In this document: one piece after another, positions 12,680-35,775 of the stretch
Layout: every line of letters starts with the position of its first letter
How positions within the stretch are numbered: position 1 is the first letter of the stretch
DNA from: Candidatus Kaiserbacteria bacterium
GTDB lineage: Bacteria > Patescibacteriota > Minisyncoccia > Phycocordibacterales > UBA2100
NCBI GenBank assembly: GCA_016432285.1
Contig: CP066682.1
Location: 352,933-416,932, forward strand
Reading direction: 5' to 3'
DNA length: 64,000 bases
Position numbers and translations under genes: made by a program
Notes under the pieces: generated by a model
Database searches by the model: none
Told to the model about the DNA's origin: nothing
Seen by the model: only the letters and a program-made list of their open reading frames with translations

Positions 12680-15600
12680 TTGAAGCACATGGGAACAACG
12701 ACCCGTGGAATTTTCAGTGTTGCGTTTTTCCTGATTTTCTACGCCTTTTTTCTTGTGCCACCTGCGGTGGCTACAATCGACGACTCCGCCGATCGAACGT
12801 GCGTGCCATTTCTTGCTGTATGCGGATGTGGTGAGACGTTGCAAAACAATACGTGCGTGAAGGTAACTTCCGAAAACACCGGTCTTAAGTCCAACGGTGT
12901 CAACATGAACGGATGCAAGTGCCAGAGCACGGAAAAACCGGCGGGTGGCACTTGCAGAGCGGTACGGGATTGCAAAGGAGAATGGTACGAGCAAAACGGC
13001 AAACGGGTCAACATCGATCCGAACGCCGAGAAGAATTTCGCGGATCTTTTGAAAGGACTTCCAAATCAACCTCCGAGCGGAGGTTCGGGACAGCAAGGGG
13101 GCGCTACACCTGATCTCTCGCCGCCGCAGCAAGCACCTTCGGAAACGAGCGATCATCAGGATTCAGAAAGCATTCAATCAGCGTTTGATCCTCTAACAGG
13201 GCAACCAATCGATCAGGGGAAGTCCGGCGATCAAAAGAATTGGGGCGAACTTCTTTCGGAGGACGAGTGGAATGATTTGGTAAAGCAAGATCAAAATCTG
13301 AGCAATCAATATCCGCCACCGACGCTGGACGAGGCGACACGGCTGCAACCAGGCTCGCCGGATACGCCATTTGATGTAGCGAAAATTGATCCGATCACGG
13401 GAGAGCCGACATACAGTGGTTTTCAAAACGGTCCGGTCCCAAACGATGAAACTGCTTCGGGGGATGAACCACGATCCGAACCGTCGTGGATGGATTCGGT
13501 CCGTGACTATGCCGGGAAAGCGTGGGACGCGATCAAGAATGAATTCGGCGGTGAGGCGGAGGCGGGTCAGGGATGCCCGAAATACAATTGTTGGGGCATC
13601 AAAAACGGCGGCAGCGGATATCAAAAATTCGGATCGGAAGAGGCCGCAGCCACACGATATCTTTCGAACTGGAAGGACTATGTCGACAAGGGATACAACA
13701 CTGTCGACAAGTATCTCAACCGATGGGTTGCCCCGAAGGAAGCCGGGACGGATCCCGAATACTATGGCCAGTATGTAAACGGAGTAAAACAAGCGATTGG
13801 CGGAAATCAGCTTGAGGCGGGCAACGCGGAGCAGGCGATCTCGATGATGAAAGCGCAAGCCCTCTACGAGCAGGGGGTCTCGGGCAGGAGCTTTCCGATC
13901 TCGGATCAGGCGATCGAGGCGGCTGCGCAACGAGTATTCGGATCGAGCTATTCCCGGGGGCCGGTGGAAGATATCGGCCCGGGAGCGGGAAGGAGTTTTG
14001 CCGCCGAGAGCTACGGCGACACGGATCGCTTTGCGCCGACGGAGGCACCCGCATGGGTGGCATCGACTCCCGGATCGACACCAGCTGATCTCGGTCTGCA
14101 ATCTGGGGTCTCTCCGTTTGGGTGGGGCAACAATTTCGACTCATACGGAGAGCCGTCCGATTCGCTCGTCGCGCAAACCGGTCCGGAAGAAACGTACGTA
14201 CCAAACGAGATCGCAAGCGGCGCGTTCGACATCGGTCCGCAGGATGTGCCGCCGCCTGTCCTCACAGACGCGCAAATCGGGGGAGGGTACAACGACCCGG
14301 ATTTCGACCCGTTCGGCGATTTCAATACGCCGGTAAACGAGCCCGCGACAGCGGACGCCGGGGATCAACAGCGCAACGAAGTCGATATTGCCGCCAACGA
14401 CGCCGAACGACAGGCGGAAATTGAGAGAGCACGAAACGAAGTCGACATCGCGGCCAACGATGCGGAGCGGCAGACGGAATTGGCTCGTGCCGAGGAGCGG
14501 CGCAACGAAGTCGATATTGCCGCCAGCGACGACGAGCGACGCCCGCTCCAGCCGAATCGCCAAGCGATCGAGCAGGCGCAGCGGGAGTATGTGGACGACT
14601 ACTTAAAGGAGTACGAGCAACGCCGTGAAGCGCAGCAACAGGCTGTAGCCAATGCGCAGAAGCAGAAGGCGCTCGACACCTTGAACGCGGCCGCGGCCGA
14701 TGTGAAAGATCGTGCCAATTCGATCGCGCAGACGGTCCGCGATCCGCAAAATCTCGACGTCAAGGATCTCGCCGCCGACGTGAAGAGCGCCCCCACCGAG
14801 CTCGCGCGTCTTCGCGCCGCCGCGCGCGAGGCGCTCGATAAGGGAGCGATCTCCAAAGAGCAGTACAACAACGTGATACGCGGGTCGGAAACGCTTCAGG
14901 GGATGGTCAGTGAGTACGCGAAGAATGACAAATATTTCAGCGAAGAATATAAAGGCCAGGTGCAAGGCGCTTTGCAGGGCAGGATTGAAACCGGCGAGAC
15001 GCGGGATCAGCTTGCGAAAGCCGGCAGCGCACTCGCGCAGGTAACCGACGTTCCGAAGACGTACACGCCGCCGCCGCGCACGCTCGGCTCAGACGCGAGC
15101 TCCGGCGTGAGCGATGCGGGGTACAGCCAGTCGCAGTCAGAAGGGTTGATCGACGGCGGCGCACTCGACTCGGGCTTCGGCCTCTCCTCGCAGCAGGTGG
15201 CCTCGCTCTACGACCAGCTCGAATTGGACGCGCAGGCGGATCAGCTGGTCGAGAGTGGGGCTCTCGACTCGGGCTTTGGCCTCACGTCGCCCCAGGTCGC
15301 ATCGCTCTACGACCATCTCGACTTGGAGAATAAAGTGGAGGGGATCGACTGGACGTCGGTTTCTTTCCACAGTCCATATACCGACACCGGTCTTTCGGAG
15401 GACATCAACGAGCAGATCCGCCTCGCGGCCGGTCCGCAGGAGTTCGTACCCGAAGAGCCGTTTGTGGAGGCGCGGCCTGATCGGAGCGGCCCGAACGATC
15501 AGGTTGCGATCAACGACGACAATCAAGTATTGCCGCTTGGTCAAAACAAGGAGGAGCTCGATCTTGAGCGGGGAGAATATGCGAAGTGGGACGACATCGT

Positions 15601-16822
15601 CCACTTTGCCGACGCGAAATCGTGGAACGACTTTGGGCAGGATGAGACGGATCGCAATTACCGCACCCCAGGCTTCCCGTCGGCTGCCGGTATCGACAAG
15701 GTCGCCGACGCGATCAGGGATGCCTCGAAAAACGTACTGGACGCATTTCGCAGCTCGGACGTGGAAGATGCGATCAAGAATTACAAAAGCCCCTACGGAG
15801 ACTACTTCGGCAACTACCTACAGTCACCGGATCCGTTCTCTCAAAGCGGCGAAGATCTGACGCGGCAGGTGCTGGCGTCCAACATTCCCGCGTCCGATCG
15901 CTTCACCCCAAGCGGGGAAGCGATTACTGAGGATGTCCTCGGGTCCAACTTCGCGCCGGTCGATTCGTCGGATCGAAGCGGCGAGGCGCTCACGCAAGAT
16001 GCGCTCGATTCCAGTTTCATCCCACCCGATTCGTTCGATCAGAGCGGGGAGGCTCTCACCGAATCCATCTCACTTTACAATCTGGCGGAATCGCAAAAGC
16101 TCATCGACGAAGGCTCGCTCGATTCTGGCTTCGACGGCTTCACCGGGGAGCAGGTAGCCGAAGCCTACCGAGACTACGCGCTGCGGAATACCGATTGGGA
16201 TCGACTCGTCTTGAACGACGACGTGCCGCAGGAAACACCTGAGGCCGATGTTTCCGATATACTGCCCGCGGATCCTTCCCAAATCGTTCCCGTAACGAAA
16301 CTCGCCGCACCAAATCAACTTATACCGAACGTGCCCGAGAAGCCGGCCGACGAGGTCAGTGCCGCCGACAAAACGGACGCGCAGTCTCCCGAAACTTCCG
16401 CCGAGGAAACTCCTGCGCAAAAGCCGCAGCTTCCAGCCGCCTGCTTCGGGCCGTCGGTCGCCGCGTGCAGTAAGGCGCTCGGCAAGGAGTGGAGCGAGAG
16501 CCGCAACGAGATCGCAAAGGATCTCGGAGTGAGCTGTACGCCCGGAAGCGCTTCCTGCAACAGGCAGATCCTAAAAGCGATCGTGGACCAAGGGGGCTTA
16601 CCACCGCCTTTGCCGCAGCCTCGAGATCCGTACTCGCGCGCGGCGCAGAATTATCCGACAGGGGACTCGCTCGTCAATTTCCTGAAAGCGGGAGGACTCC
16701 CGAGCGACTACCTCAGCCGCGCCGATTTCGCGAAGGAGAACGGCATCGACGGCTACAAAGGCACCGCGGCGCAAAACCTCCAGCTCCTCCAGTGTCTCCG
16801 AGACCCTTCCTGCAGGAAATAA
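12680..16822 (+). CDS. very large (1380 aa) secreted/surface protein: signal/TM anchor, N-terminal Cys-rich module, long acidic low-complexity region with several tandem repeat families, and a C-terminal Cys-containing module
   Basis: N-terminal hydrophobic segment (IFSVAFFLIFYAFFLVPPAVA). A Cys-rich segment spans aa 40-110. Tandem repeats include NEVDIAANDAERQxE (x3) and GALDSGFGLxSxQVASLYDxLxL (x2, with a third degenerate copy). The C-terminus has CFGPSVAACS...SCTPGSASC...LQCLRDPSC. Confidence 0.7.
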   Translation: MKHMGTTTRGIFSVAFFLIFYAFFLVPPAVATIDDSADRTCVPFLAVCGCGETLQNNTCVKVTSENTGLKSNGVNMNGCKCQSTEKPAGGTCRAVRDCKGEWYEQNGKRVNIDPNAEKNFADLLKGLPNQPPSGGSGQQGGATPDLSPPQQAPSETSDHQDSESIQSAFDPLTGQPIDQGKSGDQKNWGELLSEDEWNDLVKQDQNLSNQYPPPTLDEATRLQPGSPDTPFDVAKIDPITGEPTYSGFQNGPVPNDETASGDEPRSEPSWMDSVRDYAGKAWDAIKNEFGGEAEAGQGCPKYNCWGIKNGGSGYQKFGSEEAAATRYLSNWKDYVDKGYNTVDKYLNRWVAPKEAGTDPEYYGQYVNGVKQAIGGNQLEAGNAEQAISMMKAQALYEQGVSGRSFPISDQAIEAAAQRVFGSSYSRGPVEDIGPGAGRSFAAESYGDTDRFAPTEAPAWVASTPGSTPADLGLQSGVSPFGWGNNFDSYGEPSDSLVAQTGPEETYVPNEIASGAFDIGPQDVPPPVLTDAQIGGGYNDPDFDPFGDFNTPVNEPATADAGDQQRNEVDIAANDAERQAEIERARNEVDIAANDAERQTELARAEERRNEVDIAASDDERRPLQPNRQAIEQAQREYVDDYLKEYEQRREAQQQAVANAQKQKALDTLNAAAADVKDRANSIAQTVRDPQNLDVKDLAADVKSAPTELARLRAAAREALDKGAISKEQYNNVIRGSETLQGMVSEYAKNDKYFSEEYKGQVQGALQGRIETGETRDQLAKAGSALAQVTDVPKTYTPPPRTLGSDASSGVSDAGYSQSQSEGLIDGGALDSGFGLSSQQVASLYDQLELDAQADQLVESGALDSGFGLTSPQVASLYDHLDLENKVEGIDWTSVSFHSPYTDTGLSEDINEQIRLAAGPQEFVPEEPFVEARPDRSGPNDQVAINDDNQVLPLGQNKEELDLERGEYAKWDDIVHFADAKSWNDFGQDETDRNYRTPGFPSAAGIDKVADAIRDASKNVLDAFRSSDVEDAIKNYKSPYGDYFGNYLQSPDPFSQSGEDLTRQVLASNIPASDRFTPSGEAITEDVLGSNFAPVDSSDRSGEALTQDALDSSFIPPDSFDQSGEALTESISLYNLAESQKLIDEGSLDSGFDGFTGEQVAEAYRDYALRNTDWDRLVLNDDVPQETPEADVSDILPADPSQIVPVTKLAAPNQLIPNVPEKPADEVSAADKTDAQSPETSAEETPAQKPQLPAACFGPSVAACSKALGKEWSESRNEIAKDLGVSCTPGSASCNRQILKAIVDQGGLPPPLPQPRDPYSRAAQNYPTGDSLVNFLKAGGLPSDYLSRADFAKENGIDGYKGTAAQNLQLLQCLRDPSCRK

Positions 16823-19542: not shown

Positions 19543-19724
19543 ATAGGAATTGGAATGCGATATGCTCAGTGCGCGAGGAGGGTTCGAATCCGAATCGAGG
19601 ATTCGAAAGCCGGAGGCGCGTCGGCGCCGAGGCGGGGTCGCGGAAATTTTCAACAGAAAATTATCCCTGACCGCATAGTGGGCTTGTTATACGATGTTTG
19701 TCGGCTCGGTTTGCAGATATACAC

Positions 19725-28613: not shown

Positions 28614-30320
28614 ATGCCAGGCTTCGTTCGCGGAGGCATCAGATTTCTTTCCTCCGAAGTGCGAGGACTTCAGGCAGCTGTGTACATCCTCGCTTTGAGC
28701 GCCCTCCTCTCGTCATTGCTCGCGCTGGTGCGCGACCGCTTGTTTGCAGCGCAATTCGGCGCGGGTGCGGAGCTCGACCTCTACTACGCCGCGTTCCGGA
28801 TTCCTGATCTTCTCTTTGTAGCGACAGGCGCGCTTGTGTCTGTGTACGTGCTGATTCCACAATTGAGTGCGCGCGACAGGGAAGGGCAGCTCCGGTACAT
28901 CGACACGATCATCGCGGGCTTCTCGGCGCTTGCGCTCCTCTGCGCCGGTGTGGCCGCCTTTTTTGCGCCCTCGCTGCTCCGCTTCTTTTTTCCCGTTTTC
29001 TTCGCCGAAGGGTGGGGCGACGCGCTCGTCGGTATTACGCGCATCCTCCTTTTGCAGCCGATCTTTCTCGGGCTTTCAAATATTCTCGCCGCGATCACGC
29101 AGGCGAGGCAACGGTACGCGCTCTACGCTATTTCGCCGCTCCTGTATAACCTCGGGATCATATTCGGCCTCCTCGTCTTCTTTCCTCTCTGGGGGCTCTC
29201 GGGACTCGCGTGGGGAGTCGTGCTCGGTTCACTCCTCCACGCCGGCATCCAGCTGCCCTCGATTATCGCTGACGGTTTTTTGAAATCACTCCCGTGGATT
29301 CGGGAGCCCCAGGCCCTGCTTGCGACAGCCGTCGTCTCGGTGCCGCGGGCACTCACGCTCGCGATGAGCCAGATAATCTTTTTGGGACTGACCGCGCTTG
29401 CCTCAGCGCTTGCGCCCGGTTCGATCGCAGTCTTTATGTTCGCCTTCAATCTTCAGGCAGTTCCGCTCTCAATCGTCGGAGCTTCGTACTCGGTCGCCGC
29501 GTTCCCGACGCTTGCCTCGGCGCTCTCAGAGGGGCGACGCGAGGAGTTTGTCGAGCACATTACGATTGCCGCACGGTACGTGTTCTTCTGGTCGCTCCCC
29601 ATTTCGGCGCTCGTACTCGTTTTGCGCGCGCATCTCGTGCGCGTGGTGCTTGGCTCCGGCGCCTTCGACTGGACCGACACGCGTCTTACGGCGGCGGCGT
29701 TTGCGCTCATGGCGCTTTCGCTTGCCGCGCAGGGTCTGACGCTTCTCCTCGCGCGCGGCTACTATGCGGCTGGTCGCACGCTCGTGCCGCTCTTTGTGGC
29801 CCTCGGAAGTGCGATAGCCACCATCGCACTGGCAATGCAATTCATCGAGCTTCTCAAGGACGAGCGTCTGCTCGTTACTCTTCAACAGCTCCTCCGGCTC
29901 GAGGATGTCTCGGGCAGCTCCGTGCTCGCGCTTGCGCTTGCGTATGCGATCGTCTCCATCATCGGCTGTATTGTTCTCGTTGCGCACTTCGAGTACGCCT
30001 TTGGCGGATTTATGGTGCGAACGCGCGATTCGCTGCTCCACGCCCTCGCGGCCGCTCTCGCCGCCGCAGGCGCGGCGTACCTTGTGCTCACTGTCGTGGG
30101 GCCGCTCACGCTCTCGTCGACCCTCCTTTCAGTCTTCTTGAGGGGAGCGGCTGGCGGTGTTGCGGGTATCCTTGCGGCGGCACTCGCGTACGCACTCCTT
30201 GGTAATCGAGAGTATGCGGAGACGATTTCGGGCATACGCTCGCGTCTGTGGCGCGGCTCCCTGAAGAAAACACCGCCGATCGCCTCAGCGGAGGAGGCAA
30301 CGGTTTCTGGTCCGCAGTAG
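28614..30320 (+). CDS. murJ: lipid II flippase MurJ (MviN)
   Basis: The MurJ N-terminus (RDRLFAAQFGAGAELDLYYAAFRIPDLLF), 14 TM helices and ~570 aa length fit MurJ. The ORF-track entry 28545 overlaps the previous gene, so the ATG at 28614 (2 nt after the upstream stop) was chosen. Confidence 0.8.
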   Translation: MPGFVRGGIRFLSSEVRGLQAAVYILALSALLSSLLALVRDRLFAAQFGAGAELDLYYAAFRIPDLLFVATGALVSVYVLIPQLSARDREGQLRYIDTIIAGFSALALLCAGVAAFFAPSLLRFFFPVFFAEGWGDALVGITRILLLQPIFLGLSNILAAITQARQRYALYAISPLLYNLGIIFGLLVFFPLWGLSGLAWGVVLGSLLHAGIQLPSIIADGFLKSLPWIREPQALLATAVVSVPRALTLAMSQIIFLGLTALASALAPGSIAVFMFAFNLQAVPLSIVGASYSVAAFPTLASALSEGRREEFVEHITIAARYVFFWSLPISALVLVLRAHLVRVVLGSGAFDWTDTRLTAAAFALMALSLAAQGLTLLLARGYYAAGRTLVPLFVALGSAIATIALAMQFIELLKDERLLVTLQQLLRLEDVSGSSVLALALAYAIVSIIGCIVLVAHFEYAFGGFMVRTRDSLLHALAAALAAAGAAYLVLTVVGPLTLSSTLLSVFLRGAAGGVAGILAAALAYALLGNREYAETISGIRSRLWRGSLKKTPPIASAEEATVSGPQ

Positions 30321-30405
30321 GAGGCTCTCGGCACTCTGCGGCTCGCTGAGATGAAAAAAGGGGAATCGGCATTAGGGTGGTTGTCTGTTAGGATAGGGCT
30401 TCTTA

Positions 30406-30443
30406 CATGAATATCCGCAACTTCTCAATCATCGCACCCATCG
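30406..30443 (+). pseudogene. degenerate duplicate of the lepA 5' end (pseudo-start MNIRNFSIIAPIV...), part of an att-like direct repeat
   Basis: 30406-30443 aligns to 30577-30614 (real lepA start) with 33/38 identities, including a 19-bp perfect DR aacttctcaatcatcgcac (30419-30437 and 30589-30607). The frame terminates after 55 codons. Confidence 0.6.
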
Positions 30444-30465
30444 TCGCGGCACGCCGCTCCCTGAG

Positions 30466-30555
30466 AACCCACGGTTCTCAGCGGTCGACCTGCGCGCACT
30501 CGGTCGACCTGCTCTCCGTCACGGGAAAACTACAGTTTTCCCGACCCCTTTCGAA
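30466..30555. repeat. copy A of a conserved ~90-nt structured intergenic element (perfect 9-bp stem hairpin cgggaaaac-N4-gttttcccg at 30522-30543)
   Basis: Shares aacccacggttYtc...cacgggaaaacNNNNgttttcccgacccctttcRaa with copy B at 35082-35160. The middle segment differs between copies but is palindromic in both. Confidence 0.7.
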
Positions 30556-30576
30556 CGATGTGAGCGATTTCTGAAT

Positions 30577-32358
30577 ATGCACATCAGAAACTTCTCAATC
30601 ATCGCACACATCGATCATGGCAAGTCGACGCTTGCGGATCGTATGCTCGAAATCACGGGTACGATCGAGCCGCGCCGCATGCAGGAGCAGGTGCTCGATC
30701 GCATGGACTTGGAGCGCGAGCGCGGCATCACGATCAAAATGCAGCCCGTGCGGATGCGGTGGAATCATGAGGGCGCCGATTACATTCTCAATCTTATCGA
30801 CACGCCCGGACACGTTGATTTTGCATACGAAGTCTCGCGAGCGCTCTCCGCGGTCGAGGGCGTGATTCTGCTCGTGGACGCGACGCAGGGCGTGGAGGCA
30901 CAGACGCTCTCCGTGCTTTCGGTGGCAAAGAGCCTCGGCCGCACCATCATTCCGGTCGTGTCGAAGATCGACGCGCCGGCGGCGCGTGTGGAGGAACATG
31001 TGGCGGAGCTTGCGCTCCTTTTGGGGTGCGAGGAGCGCGACGTGCTCCGGAGCTCCGGCAAGACGGGCGAAGGCGTGCCCGCTCTCTTGAACGCGATTGT
31101 CGAGCGGATCGCGCCGCCCGAGAGCACGGGCGAGAAGACCCAGGCCCTCGTCTTCGATTTCGGCTATTCGGATCATCGCGGCGTGATCATCTACATGCGC
31201 GTCTTTGGCGGTTCCGTAAAAAAGGGCGACGAGCTGCGCCTCGCGGCGGCCGACGCCTCGTTCACTGCGCTCGAAGTGGGAGTTTTGATGCCTGAAGAAA
31301 AGCCGTGCGGAGAGTTGCTCGCGGGAGAGATTGGCTACGTCGTTACCGGCATCAAAAAACCGGGCATCGCCTCCGTCGGCGACACGGTTACGGCCGCAAA
31401 AAATGCCGCGCCCCCGTTTTCTGGCTACCAAGCGCCGTCGCCCGTCATCTGGGCTTCCGCGTATCCGGAGTCGCAAGACGATTTGCCGCTCCTACGGCAG
31501 TCGCTCGAGCGCCTGCGGCTCTCGGATTCGTCGCTTTCGTATGAAGAAGAATCTTCGGGCGTGATGGGCAAGGGATTCCGCTGCGGCTTCCTTGGCATGC
31601 TGCACCTCGAGATCGTTATCGAGCGGCTCCGCCGGGAGTTTGGTCTCTCACTCGTCGTCACGCAACCGACGACCGTCTACGAAATCACACGCACCAACGG
31701 CAAGGTGGAGGAAATCTACGCGCCCGCGCGTTTTCCCGACGACGGAACGGTGGCGAAAGTGCGGGAAGTCTGGGCGAAGGTATTCGTGATCTCGCCGCCA
31801 GATTATATCGGTGGTGTGTCGCAGCTTTTGTATGAGCATGAGGCGAAGGTGGGGGAGACGGAAACGATGCCCGACGGCAAGATGCAGCTTTCGGCCGAGA
31901 TGCCGCTGCGGGAGCTCATGCGGGGATTCTTCGATCGACTCAAGAGCATCTCATCCGGATTCGCCTCGCTCTCGTACGAGCTTCAGGGATTGCGCGAGGC
32001 CGACGTCACGCGGCTCGACGTACTGGTGGCGGAAGAGCTCGTCCCGGCTTTTGCGCGCATCGTGAGCCGCCGGCGACTCCAGACGGAGGCCGAGGCCATG
32101 GTGGAAAGACTCGAAAAGCTTTTGCCGCGGCAGCTCTTCGAGCTGAAGATTCAGGCGAAGGTAGCCGGGAGGATCATCGCCTCACGTAGAAAATCAGCGA
32201 TGCGCAAAGACGTGACGGGCTATCTCTATGGCGGCGACGTGACGCGAAAGATGAAACTGCTCGAAAAACAAAAACGCGGCAAAAAGAAAATGCTCGCGCG
32301 CGGCAAGGTGGATATACCCCACGATGTTTTCCTAAAGGTGGTGCGGGAGACCAACTAG
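30577..32358 (+). CDS. lepA: elongation factor 4 (LepA)
   Basis: N-terminus IRNFSIIAHIDHGKSTLADR, G-domain motifs and the LepA C-terminal domain. Length 593 aa. Confidence 0.9.
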   Translation: MHIRNFSIIAHIDHGKSTLADRMLEITGTIEPRRMQEQVLDRMDLERERGITIKMQPVRMRWNHEGADYILNLIDTPGHVDFAYEVSRALSAVEGVILLVDATQGVEAQTLSVLSVAKSLGRTIIPVVSKIDAPAARVEEHVAELALLLGCEERDVLRSSGKTGEGVPALLNAIVERIAPPESTGEKTQALVFDFGYSDHRGVIIYMRVFGGSVKKGDELRLAAADASFTALEVGVLMPEEKPCGELLAGEIGYVVTGIKKPGIASVGDTVTAAKNAAPPFSGYQAPSPVIWASAYPESQDDLPLLRQSLERLRLSDSSLSYEEESSGVMGKGFRCGFLGMLHLEIVIERLRREFGLSLVVTQPTTVYEITRTNGKVEEIYAPARFPDDGTVAKVREVWAKVFVISPPDYIGGVSQLLYEHEAKVGETETMPDGKMQLSAEMPLRELMRGFFDRLKSISSGFASLSYELQGLREADVTRLDVLVAEELVPAFARIVSRRRLQTEAEAMVERLEKLLPRQLFELKIQAKVAGRIIASRRKSAMRKDVTGYLYGGDVTRKMKLLEKQKRGKKKMLARGKVDIPHDVFLKVVRETN

Positions 32359-32508
32359 CCCGTGATGATCGCGAGGACGCCCGGCGCAAAGAAAATCACC
32401 ATGCCGATGATGATGAGGACGGCGACGACGCTCCAGATGGCGTTGACGATCCGTTTGGTACGCTTGTGAAAAAGAAAGCTCATAGGTGAAGTGGTACGAT
32501 TATAGCGT

Positions 32509-32886
32509 ATGAGCTGGAGTCGGCAAAGGAACGATCTCGGCCGCAGGCTCTTGAGGCGGCTGGGGCTCCTCGCGCTTCTTGGGGTCGTCGTTTTTGCCAT
32601 CTCGGGCGTATGGGGAGTCTTTGGCAAGGCGCGGGACTCGCAGACACTCCGCGCGGAGGCAGAAGTGGCACGCAACGACCTCCTTTCGCGCGAGGCGCAG
32701 CTCGAAGCCGATTTGGAGAAGCTGCGTACCGACCGCGGCGTCGAGGAAGAGCTCCGTACGCAGTATTCGCTCGCCGGGGAAGGCGAGCGGCTCATCGTAA
32801 TCGTCGATCCCTCGAGCACGACCCCGATCAAGGCGACCTCTTCGCCGATCAAGCTGTGGTTCCAAAAGATTTTCCCCTGGTGGTGA
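32509..32886 (+). CDS. septum formation initiator family protein (FtsB/DivIC-like)
   Basis: Single TM, then a coiled coil, then the conserved EEELRTQYSLAGEGERLIVIVD motif. The minus-strand ORF 32355..32852 is its antisense shadow. Confidence 0.7.
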   Translation: MSWSRQRNDLGRRLLRRLGLLALLGVVVFAISGVWGVFGKARDSQTLRAEAEVARNDLLSREAQLEADLEKLRTDRGVEEELRTQYSLAGEGERLIVIVDPSSTTPIKATSSPIKLWFQKIFPWW

Positions 32887-32888
32887 TG

Positions 32889-32894
32889 TATAGT
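32889..32894 (+). promoter_or_regulatory. -10 box TGTATAGT for tRNA-Gly
   Basis: gatgTATAGTatt lies 9 nt upstream of the tRNA 5' end. Confidence 0.45.
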
Positions 32895-32903
32895 ATTCCG
32901 ACC

Positions 32904-32974
32904 GCGGGATTAGTTTAGTGGTAGAACGGCTGCTTCCCAAGCAGCAGATACGGGTTCGATTCCCGTATCCCGCA
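32904..32974 (+). tRNA. tRNA-Gly (anticodon CCC); CCA not encoded
   Basis: Acceptor GCGGGAT/ATCCCGC, anticodon stem GCTGC/GCAGC with loop TTCCCAA, T-arm CGGGTTCGATTCCCG. Confidence 0.85.
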
Positions 32975-33010
32975 CACGAGCGAGCGCTTGGCCGATTTCC
33001 CGTACTCGCA

Positions 33011-33364
33011 CTACAGGTACTTTTTTCCGTATGTCCGCATTTCGTCCACCACCTTCCGGAGGGCCCTGCCTTGCGAAGTGAGGCGATACTCCACGTAAGG
33101 TGGGAGGCGCTTCAGCGCAGTGCGAGCCACGAGGCCGCGCCTTTCGAGCCGGCGGAGCGTCTTGGTGAGCGTGCGGGTACTCATACCGAGCGATTCGTCG
33201 AGATGTCCAAAACGGCGCGGGCCGTCCAAAAGATCGCGCACGACGAGGAGGGAGCAGGCGTCCCCGAGGAGATCGGCCACCCGGGCGACGGGGCAGTCGG
33301 CGCAGAGGTCTTCGCGTTGCTTTTTGGTGCGCAACATCAGACCACGGTAGCACGAGTTATCCAC
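33011..33364 (-). CDS. HxlR-family (MarR-like winged-helix) transcriptional regulator
   Basis: CPVARVADLLGDACSLLVVRDLLDGPRRFGHLDESLGMSTRTLTKTLRRLERRGLV is a typical HxlR helix-turn-helix. The start may be the internal ATG 27 nt downstream. Confidence 0.8.
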   Translation of the reverse strand: MDNSCYRGLMLRTKKQREDLCADCPVARVADLLGDACSLLVVRDLLDGPRRFGHLDESLGMSTRTLTKTLRRLERRGLVARTALKRLPPYVEYRLTSQGRALRKVVDEMRTYGKKYL

Positions 33365-33424
33365 TTTACAAAGTAAAGCGACTATCTATACTGAGTCTCT
33401 ACCAACAAACTTTACTAAGTAAAG
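33364..33424. promoter_or_regulatory. two palindromic operator boxes CTTTAC-N3-GTAAAG (33364-33378 and 33410-33424) in the divergent hxlR/LUD promoter region
   Basis: Both boxes are perfect 6+6 inverted repeats with identical half-sites, 46 bp apart. A TATACT -10-like box lies between them (33388-33393). Confidence 0.55.
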
Positions 33425-33467
33425 CAACTGAAATCGAGCGGCGTCAGCAGAAGCGCCACATCAACGT

Positions 33468-34085
33468 ATGGAATATACGAAACTTGCAACTGAAGAGATC
33501 ATCGAGAAGGCAGTGCACGAGCTCGAAGCGAGGCGTTTCAAGACCGCCCGTGTGCAGAATCGCGCCGAAGCGCTCGAATACATCAAGAAGACTATTCCCG
33601 CAGGTGCGTCGGTCATGAACGGTTCGTCGGTGACGCTCGAGGAGATCGGCTTTGTCGATTACCTCAAAGCTGGCGGGCACCCGTGGAGAAATCTGCACGA
33701 GGAAATTCTTAATGAGCCCGACAAAGACAAGCGCGCGCAGGCGCGCATGCATGCGGTCGTTTCCGATTACTATCTCGGCAGCGTGCATGCGCTTACGGAG
33801 GGTGGTGAGATGGTGATCGGCTCCAACACCGGAAGCCAACAGCCGCACCTCTCGTACACCTCACAAAATCTCATCTTGGTCGTCGGCACACAAAAGATCG
33901 TACCGGACCTGCCGGCGGCCTTGGAGCGGCTCGAAAAGCACGTCATCCCCCTCGAAGACGAGCACATGAAGGGGCTGTACGGCTCTGGCACGCAGCACAA
34001 CAAGACGCTGATTCTGTACGGGGAGAGCAGCATGATGAAGCGGAATGCCACCGTGCTCCTCGTAGAGGAAAAACTCGGTTTCTAG
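33468..34085 (+). CDS. LUD-domain protein (LutC/YkgG, DUF162-like lactate-utilisation family)
   Basis: Conserved LUD-domain pattern (..G.S.T..E.G.....L......H...YY.GS.HA.TE.G..V..S..GS.....). It is divergent from hxlR. Confidence 0.65.
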   Translation: MEYTKLATEEIIEKAVHELEARRFKTARVQNRAEALEYIKKTIPAGASVMNGSSVTLEEIGFVDYLKAGGHPWRNLHEEILNEPDKDKRAQARMHAVVSDYYLGSVHALTEGGEMVIGSNTGSQQPHLSYTSQNLILVVGTQKIVPDLPAALERLEKHVIPLEDEHMKGLYGSGTQHNKTLILYGESSMMKRNATVLLVEEKLGF

Positions 34086-34124
34086 GCGATATGGTATTAT
34101 CAGGTATCACTAAAAAATAATCGT

Positions 34125-34367
34125 ATGGCTACAAAACAAAACGTAACTATTTACTCGACCCCGACCTGCCACTTCTGCCACATGGCGAAGGACTTTTTTG
34201 CCGCCAACAAGATTCAGTTCACCGACTACAACGTTGCGACCGATCTCGAAAAGCGCAAAGAGATGGTAGAAAAGAGCGGTCAGATGGGCGTGCCCGTCAT
34301 CACGATCGGCAAAGAGACCATCGTCGGCTACGACGAGGATCGCCTCAAGGAGCTGCTCGCAGTCTAG
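34125..34367 (+). CDS. glutaredoxin-like protein (NrdH/YruB type, CxxC = CHFC)
   Basis: 80 aa. IYSTPTCHFCHMAKDFF...GVPVITIGKETIVGYDEDRLKELL is a classic Grx fold. Confidence 0.85.
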   Translation: MATKQNVTIYSTPTCHFCHMAKDFFAANKIQFTDYNVATDLEKRKEMVEKSGQMGVPVITIGKETIVGYDEDRLKELLAV

Positions 34368-34384
34368 TGCCCTCGGCAGGAATC
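34366..34384. repeat. 19-bp perfect direct repeat agtgccctcggcaggaatc duplicating the 3' end of tRNA-Arg (second copy 34525-34543, inside the tRNA)
   Basis: Exact 19/19 match 159 bp apart. The intervening DNA also holds an inverted partial copy of the tRNA T-arm (34470-34485, ttcgattcctgc). Confidence 0.7.
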
Positions 34385-34526
34385 TCCCTCGACTCTCGGC
34401 TCGCCGTCGCTCGCCTCGGTCTGGGCACCGCCTCGCTGCTCGGCCTGCTGGCCTCGCATCGCTCCGGCGTTCGATTCCTGCACGCGCCATGCAGCGGCAC
34501 GGCGCTCTCGATCACTTGCTTCGCAG

Positions 34527-34598
34527 TGCCCTCGGCAGGAATCGAACCCACATCTCTCCCTTAGGACGGGATAGCTCTATCCATTGAGCTACGAGGGC
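34527..34598 (-). tRNA. tRNA-Arg (anticodon CCT); CCA not encoded
   Basis: Reverse complement folds as acceptor GCCCTCG/CGAGGGC, D-arm GCTCAATGGATAGAGC, anticodon loop GTCCTAA, T-loop TTCGATT. Confidence 0.8.
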
Positions 34599-34632
34599 GA
34601 GGCCGCAACTATAGCATGCTAAGATTTCAGGC

Positions 34633-34923
34633 ATGGATCCGAGTCAGGAAACGCTGAGAGAGATTCTTCGTCTCACACAGGAGAACAACCGCATGCTCCA
34701 CAAAATGCGCCGCAGCGCGTTTTGGGGCGGGATCCTGAAGCTCCTTCTGTACGCCGCGCTCCTCGGAATTCCGCTGTGGCTCTACATCACGTACCTTGGC
34801 CCCATGATGCAGGAGGTCATACAAACGTATCGCGACATCCAGGGCACCGGCGCCAACGTCTCGGCGCAGTTCACTGATTTTCAGGGAATGCTTCAGCAGT
34901 TCAAGGATAATTTCTCGCAGTAA
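34633..34923 (+). CDS. small (96 aa) hypothetical membrane protein
   Basis: Helical N-terminus plus one TM (ILKLLLYAALLGIPLWLYITYL). No family recognised. Confidence 0.4.
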   Translation: MDPSQETLREILRLTQENNRMLHKMRRSAFWGGILKLLLYAALLGIPLWLYITYLGPMMQEVIQTYRDIQGTGANVSAQFTDFQGMLQQFKDNFSQ

Positions 34924-34953
34924 AACAGGTCGACTTCCAATAAAAAGATCTGG

Positions 34954-34959
34954 TATAGT
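34954..34959 (+). promoter_or_regulatory. extended -10 box TGgTATAGT upstream of tRNA-Phe
   Basis: atctggTATAGTacc, ~40 nt upstream of the tRNA. Confidence 0.4.
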
Positions 34960-34999
34960 ACCGCAATCGCCCGGAGAGGTTCGTTTCTGGGCGTCGCTT

Positions 35000-35073
35000 G
35001 CCCAGATAGCTCAGGTAGTAGAGCATTCCCCTGAAGAGGGAAGGGTCGTCAGTGCAAATCTGACTCTGGGCAC
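35000..35073 (+). tRNA. tRNA-Phe (anticodon GAA)
   Basis: Acceptor GCCCAGA/TCTGGGC, D-arm GCTCAGGTAGTAGAGC, anticodon loop CTGAAGA, T-arm GTCAGTGCAAATCTGAC, discriminator A. Confidence 0.85.
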
Positions 35074-35081
35074 CTCTTGGA

Positions 35082-35160
35082 AACCCACGGTTTTCCAACG
35101 CTCGCTTCGCGAGCTGTCTTCCTCCACGGGAAAACAATTGTTTTCCCGACCCCTTTCAAA
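35082..35160. repeat. copy B of the conserved structured element (hairpin cgggaaaac-aatt-gttttcccg at 35127-35148), 8 nt downstream of the tRNA-Phe 3' end
   Basis: Aligns with copy A (30466-30555). Flanks and hairpin stems are identical. The central segment holds a different palindrome (gctcgcttcgcgagc). Confidence 0.7.
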
Positions 35161-35296
35161 GCCCAGAAGAGCCGTGCCTGCGCACGGCTCGTGTCGGATT
35201 TGCAAGCCGGAGCCATGTCGCCTTGGCGACAGGCGAGGCCGGGCAGGAGCCACTTAACGAGCGCAGCGAGTTTAGTGAGCTGTCGCCAAATCTGAC

Positions 35297-35315
35297 TCTG
35301 GGCACACAAAAAAAT
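35297..35315. repeat. 19-bp perfect direct repeat caaatctgactctgggcac duplicating the tRNA-Phe 3' end (first copy 35055-35073)
   Basis: Exact 19/19 match 242 bp downstream. This is an att-like duplication bracketing element copy B. Confidence 0.7.
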
Positions 35316-35355
35316 CCGGCCTGTCAGTCGACAGGCCGGTGCACACTTCGTTTGT

Positions 35356-35775
35356 TCAGGCGGCATTTTGTTCGCGCCTCCGGGTTTCTGAGGATCGCGC
35401 TTTTCGACGCTCAGCCTCCTGCCGCGCGGCTTTTCCCGGCCACAAAATCCCCGCTCCCCGGTGTTCGCGGTTCAGGTACAGCGCCAGAACGGACATTCCG
35501 TACGAGTACCACCCGCAGAGGGTCAGCAGAATGAACATCACCTCGTTGGACGTTCCGTTCTTTAAGAAGTTGTGTGGATACTTGCGAACCGTGATCGCGT
35601 ACACAACTCCGGCTCCCGCGAATCCGGCCGGGAGCCAGGTGACCCCGATCACGCCGATGAGGATATACGAAAAGTTGGACCACGCTTCTGTCATGGGATT
35701 CCCCCGCGCTGAAAAACGTATGCGGATCAGCCCGCACCTAGTGGAGAAGCCTACGGATTTGGGGCGGAAGGTCAA
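35356..35775 (-). CDS. hypothetical membrane protein (3 TM helices), basic C-terminal tail
   Basis: A terminator (ccggcctgtc..gacaggccgg plus T7) sits immediately after its stop on the minus strand. The start may be the internal ATG (MTEAWSNF...). Confidence 0.4.
   Translation of the reverse strand: MTFRPKSVGFSTRCGLIRIRFSARGNPMTEAWSNFSYILIGVIGVTWLPAGFAGAGVVYAITVRKYPHNFLKNGTSNEVMFILLTLCGWYSYGMSVLALYLNREHRGAGILWPGKAARQEAERRKARSSETRRREQNAA

Follow-up and report, generated by a model that had tools for sequence, protein, structure and literature searches.

Why does the 3′ end of a tRNA-Arg gene occur twice within a short distance, with the outer copy touching the stop codon of a glutaredoxin gene and an inverted piece of the same tRNA lying in between? 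The locus belongs to a 64,000-nucleotide (nt) stretch of DNA from a Candidatus Kaiserbacteria bacterium (contig CP066682.1, positions 352,933 to 416,932 of the forward strand; hereafter, the window). A sequence search recovered the 19-nt perfect direct repeat AGTGCCCTCGGCAGGAATC at 34366–34384 and 34525–34543 (159 nt from start to start), which reads GATTCCTGCCGAGGGCACT on the tRNA strand and corresponds to positions 57–75 of tRNA-Arg, that is, the last four bases of the T-loop, the 3′ strand of the T-stem, the 3′ acceptor strand, the discriminator base and one or two trailer bases. The distal copy extends over the final two bases of TAG, the glutaredoxin stop codon (34365–34367), and the inverted T-arm copy between the repeats, GTTCGATTCCTGC at 34469–34481, is complementary in 13 of 13 positions to 34535–34547 (G53, T-loop and 3′ T-stem). 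An original prediction, made from the letters of the window, had described all three features correctly and read them as scars of repeated integration and excision at a tRNA hotspot. Our analysis points to a different answer: the 140 nt between the repeats are very probably an inserted member of a family of small elements, here called B1 (the family names B1, B2 and A were coined in this analysis), and the best explanation of the locus as a whole, to which we assign a probability of roughly 0.55, is a non-autonomous site-specific element moved by a trans-acting enzyme through a folded attachment site or a guide. The features of the locus, from the tRNA gene to the glutaredoxin gene, are as follows (DR, direct repeat; P, hairpin).

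34526 to 34598, minus strand: tRNA-Arg(CCT), intact, with its last 18 nt inside repeat copy 1 (ARAGORN; Rfam places the tRNA at 34527 to 34598 with 56.4 bits)
34525 to 34543, minus strand: DR1 (repeat copy 1), tRNA positions 57–75, the working 3′ end of the tRNA
34506 to 34524, minus strand: spacer 3′ of the tRNA, where other family members have an intrinsic terminator hairpin
34484 to 34505, minus strand: hairpin P1 (GCGCCGTGC-CGCT-GCATGGCGC on the tRNA strand), adjoining the antisense segment (from folding, and at the same position in family members)
34469 to 34481, minus strand: antisense copy of tRNA positions 53–65 (G53, T-loop, 3′ T-stem), matching its own tRNA in 13 of 13 positions
34461 to 34468, minus strand: conserved linker GCCGGAGC
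34437 to 34460, minus strand: hairpin P2, with a CAGCAG-type loop and a tandem G·A internal mismatch (from covariation in 42 copies and the fold)
34418 to 34436, minus strand: conserved linker GCGAGGCGGTGCCCAGACC
34385 to 34417, minus strand: hairpin P3, with the conserved loop GAGCGACGGCGAG (34400–34412), followed by the element end GAGTCGAGGGA
34366 to 34384, minus strand: DR2 (repeat copy 2), the displaced original 3′ end of the tRNA, which pairs with the antisense segment in the predicted fold
34125 to 34367, plus strand: glutaredoxin gene (PF00462), the stop codon of which overlaps DR2 by 2 nt

Was anything inserted here at all? The comparison with relatives that the original prediction had proposed for the tRNA-Arg(CCT) locus indicates that it was. 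Syntenic loci in Kaiserbacteria-like relatives, reached through homologues of the 96-amino-acid (aa) protein that adjoins the Arg feature (identical to HYS26_02280), carry tRNA-Arg on the strand opposite the glutaredoxin gene, without the repeat and without the inverted fragment, and the distance from the tRNA's 3′ end to the glutaredoxin stop is 0 nt (L007), 3 nt (L009) or 46 nt (L003), compared with 158 nt in the window. Because the tRNA end abuts the glutaredoxin stop in these relatives, the copy at 34366 marks the original 3′ end. DR2 occupies the exact place of the tRNA end in L007 and L009, so ~159 bp were inserted at the T-loop and the tRNA was completed by a second copy of its end. Exact-protein look-ups with the glutaredoxin and its 96-aa neighbour returned only identical short contigs, and no close strain for comparison. 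The occurrence of tRNA-derived sequence three times in 180 bp could also be taken for a decayed second tRNA-Arg gene, which the original prediction had named as the finding that would overturn it, or for a chance repeat. However, only positions 57–75 (direct) and 53–65 (inverted) recur, the duplicated part amounts to 19 nt with no 5′ half of a tRNA, neither ARAGORN nor Rfam (even at E ≤ 5) detects an additional tRNA, a 19-nt exact repeat within 600 nt appeared in none of 100 Markov-shuffled versions of the window, and the insert has a strong family match. Recurrence of the 3′ part alone excludes a decayed tRNA, and the family evidence refutes both decay and chance, the least credible of the explanations considered here.

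What, then, was inserted? With the Arg insert as an nhmmer query, similar elements of the same layout were found after other tRNAs in loci of the candidate phyla radiation (CPR). A metagenome scan with the pattern GCGAGGCGG-N(5–35)-GAGCGACGGCGAG returned 120 loci, ~44 of them true elements and the rest chance matches in GC-rich coding DNA. Thirty-three of the ~44 B1 elements lie directly 3′ of a tRNA, and at least 14 isoacceptors are involved (Gly, Arg, Phe, Cys, Glu, Ser, Leu, Asn, Gln, Val, Pro, Ala, Tyr and Lys). Across these 33 copies the repeat starts at tRNA position 56, 57 or 60 and ends at 73–83; in B1, DR2 begins 14–15 nt (sometimes 20 nt) past the loop motif GAGCGACGGCGAG, and the antisense segment runs from position 53 to 62–68 and lies 31–33 nt before GCGAGGCGG. 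The window copy conforms to this geometry throughout (repeat 57–75, DR2 offset 15, antisense segment 53–65 at an offset of 32 before GCGAGGCGG), and it contains GCCGGAGC, GCGAGGCGG and the loop GAGCGACGGCGAG in this order (34461–34468, 34418–34436 and 34400–34412). A hidden Markov model (HMM) of 41 other B1 copies, with the window copy left out, matched the window at 34389–34469 with E = 3.2e-13. The same model matched a module beside the tRNA-Phe of the window with E = 0.019, and its weak, non-significant matches at 19550–19653, a short way upstream of tRNA-Ser(GGA) (E = 0.42 and 2.7), are probably due to chance.

The fixed geometry together with the profile match implies that the 140 nt constitute one intact element and not debris. 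The insert holds no plausible gene, as mechanically called open reading frames (ORFs) that overlap it run on into the flanks, and the inverted T-arm fragment, rather than debris, is an integral module of B1 that matches the target. The tRNA hotspot proposed earlier thus stands in one respect, insertion at a tRNA 3′ end, which the relatives support; repeated integration and excision scars find no support, as all landmarks sit at the fixed distances of the family and the 140 nt form one complete conserved element. Some B1 copies have an additional antisense piece that spans the acceptor strand, and P1 then lies between the two. We also observed B1-like variants (L131, L155, L214, L225, L249; L164/L171, L175/L209, L234), some with only an antisense acceptor/CCA piece beside the scaffold and no detectable repeat, others without an upstream tRNA; such copies may represent sub-lineages in which the crossover point is different or the target is not a tRNA.

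The Arg repeat had been noted as the third duplication of a gene terminus in the window, and the other two, at the 5′ end of lepA and the 3′ end of tRNA-Phe, are indeed present; the tRNA-Ser and tRNA-Gly of the window carry nothing comparable.

30444 to 30576, plus strand: family A element at lepA, between the displaced lepA 5′ end (30407–30443) and the working start (30577), with the antisense segment CGATGTGAGCGAT at 30556–30568
35075 to 35286, plus strand: composite element after tRNA-Phe (35000–35074), consisting of module A (35075–35160) and a B2 module (~35165–35286)

At lepA the repeats (30407–30443 and 30577–30613) are 37 nt long and 86% identical, with a perfect 19-nt core and a spacing of 170, and at tRNA-Phe they are 35055–35073 and 35287–35305, identical in 19 of 19 positions with a spacing of 232. 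Module A, which is common to the lepA and Phe inserts, consists of the hairpin GAAACCnnnGGTTTC, a linker CTTCCnCCAC and a 9-bp hairpin followed by GACCCCTTTC. Module B is common to the Phe and Arg inserts, each of which holds the inverted T-loop and 3′ T-stem of its own tRNA; in the B2 module of the Phe element the antisense T-loop is GTCGGATTTGCAA at 35193–35205. As stated in the original prediction, the Arg insert does not contain the hairpin core GGGAAAACnnnnGTTTTCCCGACCCCTTTC, which is confined to 30523–30552 and 35128–35157. This absence, once read as a sign of scarring, reflects membership of B1, a family other than that of the lepA and Phe elements (A), and not decay. Module A of the Phe element is oriented opposite to the usual direction and sits in the middle of a palindrome, the arms of which are the tRNA acceptor strand (TCTGGGC) and an inverted copy of it (GCCCAGA, 35161–35167); B2 follows. 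In the relative L003 (4068–4195), a second, diverged T-arm and acceptor end (GGTCAGTGCAAGTCTGACCCCGGGCAC) lies 10 nt 3′ of tRNA-Phe and resembles the T-arm of the window tRNA-Phe; in this genome, too, tRNA-Phe seems to have had its 3′ part exchanged, and there is hardly any insert.

How widespread are such elements? The 18-nt family A core GTTTTCCCGACCCCTTTC occurs in at least 119 stretches of species-representative genomes, among the matches listed, and nearly all of the hosts in these matches are Saccharibacteria, Parcubacteria, Berkelbacteria and other Patescibacteria, with many copies at contig ends. A few matches fall in metagenome-assembled genomes labelled Bdellovibrionales, Bathyarchaeia and WS2, which may represent a wider range of hosts or else errors in binning. 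On the tRNA strand, the layout comprises an intact tRNA ending in DR1, a terminator hairpin, the antisense segment (position 53 to 60–71), 2 nt, the reverse-complemented core with its hairpins, DR2 and host DNA. Among the 53 cases measured, repeats begin at positions 57–60 (sometimes 53) and end 1–5 nt past the acceptor stem; position 53 is the start of the antisense segment, which lies 2 nt from the core, in 28 of 46 cases. More than 20 tRNA isoacceptors serve as targets. A second target class consists of the 5′ ends of the translational GTPase genes for EF-G, LepA and TypA, where the core lies 42–76 nt upstream of the start codon, the repeat begins near the start codon and reaches the AHID(H/A)GK motif, and the antisense segment covers this motif. 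At tRNA and GTPase targets alike, the repeat always begins at the crossover point and ends shortly beyond the end of the gene. A third class (L019, L022, L040, L047, L051, L059, L097 and L126), in which the core is followed by CCAAAGGCTAAAGCCTTTTTACGGGTACTCCCTCCTAAGGGAGAC within AT-rich intergenic DNA, lacks neighbouring tRNAs or other Rfam RNAs, and these copies showed no direct repeat.

The two lepA copies encode MNIRNFSIIAP and MHIRNFSIIAH and use synonymous arginine codons (CGC and AGA). These synonymous differences indicate that one copy came from another lepA allele and not from local duplication, as expected if one copy arrived with the element. The reading frame that begins at the old lepA ATG (30407) stays open through the element up to a TGA at 30572–30574, 2 nt before the ATG at 30577, and in all five GTPase-associated copies checked the old-start frame stops 2–27 nt before the real start, which suggests that translational coupling keeps the GTPase target gene expressed.

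These data bear on the possibility that template switching during replication or repair, by fold-back at a terminator palindrome and perhaps seeded by a mobile body, produced the repeats and inverted copies as by-products. Such a process would account for the direct–inverted–direct arrangement of tRNA 3′ ends, for the long palindrome of tRNA end, terminator and inverted copy, for long repeats that include the terminator, and for the match of repeats and inverted copies to the local tRNA despite nearly identical element bodies. In most copies, however, both the inner end of the inverted copy (position 53) and the spacing between it and the scaffold are fixed, B1 hairpin P1 is embedded within the inverted copy at the 65/66 junction, and the synonymous codons at lepA make one of the two copies foreign rather than locally templated; we therefore consider template switching improbable. 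Two further readings of the tRNA-derived pieces were rejected. Repeats of the kind left by a retroviral-type primer-binding site are excluded because many repeats run into the non-CCA trailer, so that they derive from the gene and not from a mature tRNA, and the inverted fragment is no natural continuation of an antisense T-arm strand, as the loop reads sense and long copies enter the acceptor strand.

Cut-and-paste or casposase-like transposition with a long target-site duplication would fit the perfect 19-nt repeats at all three sites of the window, and casposons reportedly have tRNA 3′ ends and an elongation-factor gene among their targets. Against it, the repeat length is variable (10–27 nt exact at tRNAs, 19–45 nt at GTPase genes) with an outer end that follows the gene end, no terminal inverted repeats border the repeats, neither Cas1 nor a transposase is encoded nearby, and the lepA copies have diverged in a codon-aware manner, leaving this route very hard to credit. 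A target-site duplication of fixed stagger was dismissed as the repeat length tracks the distance to the gene end, a miniature inverted-repeat transposable element as the ends GCGAAGC... and ...GAGGGA are not inverted repeats and the repeat length is not fixed, and a casposon for want of a Cas1 gene, terminal inverted repeats and a duplication of ~14–15 bp.

Could the Arg insert be what is left of a larger integrative element—a phage, island or satellite—that entered tRNA-Arg by way of a tyrosine integrase and lost its body, fusing attL and attR? Direct repeats of a tRNA 3′ end that start in the T-loop, as found here around an insert absent from relatives, are the classical footprint of integrase insertion. 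In L116 a remnant core upstream reveals tandem stacking of units, and L028 (1–8000) contains a 6.9-kb segment adjoining tRNA-Asn and flanked by 274-nt direct repeats (97% identical), each with a module A. The L028 segment encodes GmrSD, an EcoRI-type methylase, AbiEi/AbiEii, a ClpP-like protease and two ORFs without a Pfam, PHROG or PDB match, and defence islands may use elements of this kind to land or recombine; the L028 segment was the only case that turned up when longer or autonomous versions were looked for. However, dozens of independent copies share the same complete architecture with fixed distances and covarying stems, the measured family A copies at tRNAs all span 83–267 bp and none contains an integrase, the L028 island has no recognizable integrase, and no integrase gene lies inside or beside the Arg insert. 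The family A core had no match in 2.9 million viral contigs, and blastn of the Arg element and module A against phages and plasmids gave nothing relevant, two matches in Streptomyces being GC-rich chance similarities in a coding gene. A decayed integrative element is thus a poor candidate.

Does the element act through its folded form, and on which strand? The sequence of stem P2 varies among 42 B1 copies while its pairing is kept (305 Watson–Crick pairs, 15 tandem G·A and few other mismatches), as judged from a stem analysis of each copy, a MAFFT alignment with an alifold consensus being uninformative with such variable stems. Hairpins P2 and P3 both covary, and B1 elements fold better on the tRNA strand. 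For the window element with DR2, this strand reaches −76.6 kcal/mol (z = −3.4; none of 200 shuffles as stable) compared with z = −0.5 for the opposite strand, and in the predicted minimum-energy fold the antisense segment pairs with DR2, closing a multi-helix junction. The same strand is the more stable in 41 of 42 B1 copies and 98 of 116 family A copies. It is sense to tRNAs but antisense to GTPase genes, which implies that orientation accords with the interior-to-end direction of the gene and not with that of transcription, and a DNA-level role of the single strand is mildly favoured over a co-transcribed RNA. The antisense segments are matched to their targets: over at least 11 nt, 54% of the elements agree with their own tRNA, compared with 2.9% for other tRNAs, and unusual T-loops are tracked, including positions 54–55 outside the repeat (TGCAAAT in tRNA-Phe, TCCGAnn in L096 and L138).

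From these properties we infer non-autonomous homing by an enzyme encoded elsewhere. The element would insert at a highly conserved site near the end of an essential gene, by strand exchange or cleavage in the T-loop in the case of a tRNA; a gene-end copy borne by the element would keep the essential gene working. In the window, the insertion brought a replacement for the last 19 nt of the tRNA and pushed the original 3′ end 159 bp away, where it still abuts the glutaredoxin stop. The site may be recognized through the built-in antisense segment. How this segment would act can be envisioned in two ways. In the first, it would pair with the element's own gene-end copy in a folded single strand, creating a mimic of the double-stranded target for a recombinase, and since DR2 is bordered on the element side by sequence unlike that of the T-loop, a mismatched bubble would arise at the crossover. 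We rank this folded-site mechanism first among the specific mechanisms, although it is doubtful when taken on its own. In the second, the segment would be an RNA or DNA guide for a nuclease or recombinase, with the tRNA body and the short repeat as homology arms.

The RNA version of the guide would involve a transcribed scaffold, the target-matched segment of which directs a nuclease or recombinase encoded elsewhere to unoccupied tRNA T-loops, with repair of the cut copying the element in. The segment lies at a fixed distance from the scaffold (2 nt in A; 31–33 nt before the motif in B1), matches its own target and reaches the target-only positions 53–55 beyond the repeat, and the targets are unrelated in sequence (tRNA T-loop versus GTPase AHID motif), pointing to programmable recognition; as with homing elements, they are highly conserved sites of essential genes, and terminator-like hairpins bound many copies. 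Several features are at odds with such a system: the working tRNA retains the full target, so that with a simple nuclease guide occupied alleles would be cleaved as well; the matched lengths are short (median 11–13 nt); orientation is fixed to the gene interior-to-end direction rather than to transcription, the folding strand being antisense to GTPase mRNAs; no promoter is evident inside the element; and recurrent neighbours at 119 family A loci comprise only the GTPase targets and unrelated housekeeping genes, with no candidate effector there or among the window ORFs. RNA-guided homing is accordingly unlikely in our view. No integrase, transposase, reverse transcriptase or recombinase was found by Pfam among ~57 ORFs of the window.

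Several observations weigh against a mobile element moved in trans, by whichever of these routes. No enzyme was identified, and no free, excised or single-stranded form was seen. The predicted empty site of the Arg locus (...GGGTTC + GATTCCTGCCGAGGGCACT + AGACTGCG) had no match in the scanned metagenomes, and recent mobility at this exact locus is not supported. Strand-specific folding is equally compatible with RNA. In a few family A copies the repeats are 37–79 nt long and take in the terminator together with part of the antisense segment, which fits template switching better. Closely related element bodies occur at different tRNAs, so the repeat and antisense segment must have been re-matched often, and neither the folded-site nor the guide model explains this simply.

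Do these elements correspond to anything described before? In the window, only tRNA and RNase P reached the Rfam threshold, and permissive searches gave nothing credible at E ≤ 5 (30300–35450) or at E ≤ 1 (three family A loci). Literature searches by topic and by literal motif string yielded no description of these elements, and the families appear to be undescribed. The closest parallel in outcome is with tRNA-targeting tyrosine-integrase elements (prophages, islands and integrase-less satellites, for example among tycheposons), which likewise insert at the T-loop or 3′ end, supply a replacement 3′ end, leave the displaced original as a repeat and may stack. The present elements differ in their ~140-nt size, lack of any gene, structured scaffold, target-matched antisense segment, combination of many tRNAs with GTPase 5′ ends and lack of a phage or plasmid counterpart. 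In design, they resemble CTX-phi and other Xer-exploiting integrative mobile elements (IMEX) and integron attC sites, in which inverted segments pair within one strand to rebuild a double-stranded site, with mismatches on the crossover side, strand specificity and a recombinase acting in trans; the target is a tRNA or GTPase gene here versus dif or attI there, and the resemblance is one of design alone, known on our side from sequence and predicted fold.

With the bridge or seek RNA of IS110/IS1111 and the TnpB omega RNA of IS200/IS605, the elements have in common a structured non-coding scaffold beside a programmable target-matched segment. Unlike those systems, they contain no transposase or TnpB gene, duplicate at least 19 nt of a gene end, match no Rfam family and have conserved loops that are not the variable parts. 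Casposons share the preference for tRNA 3′ ends and a translation-GTPase gene end as well as flanking direct repeats, but they encode Cas1 and a polymerase and have terminal inverted repeats and a fixed ~14–15 bp duplication, none of which occurs here. Homing introns and inteins are similar in being selfish insertions at the most conserved sites of essential genes that keep function intact, whereas here function is kept by duplication of the gene end and not by splicing, and no homing endonuclease gene is present.

One other repeat array was observed in the window, at 14371–15327, where tandem imperfect repeats (periods of ~60–69 and 99 nt) lie within a 1380-aa ORF (12680–16819) without a Pfam match. 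Two Logan contigs (L001 and L002), identical to the window and derived from independent short-read assemblies of the same organism, break at ~30708, 34436 and 35057, that is, within or beside its three elements, which fits these elements being repeated in the genome.

What would such elements mean for their hosts? If our reading holds, even the tiny genomes of CPR bacteria (here a contig of ~859 kb) host abundant selfish elements in the most conserved sites of translation genes, where a spare gene end spares the target, and the antisense segment points to a programmable insertion system with an enzyme in trans. Tentatively, and at less than even odds, we propose that they form an undescribed class of homing elements that are protein-less in cis and almost confined to the CPR, each combining a scaffold, a replacement gene end and a target-matched antisense segment that can be re-matched to many tRNAs and to the P-loop region of EF-G, LepA and TypA genes. 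The elements break assemblies, with many copies at contig ends, and create pseudo gene starts and pseudo tRNA ends that can mislead annotation. If true, the existence of this class would imply a new guide-directed or folded-site insertion mechanism with a trans-acting enzyme to match, of relevance for the biology of mobile elements and possibly for genome engineering.

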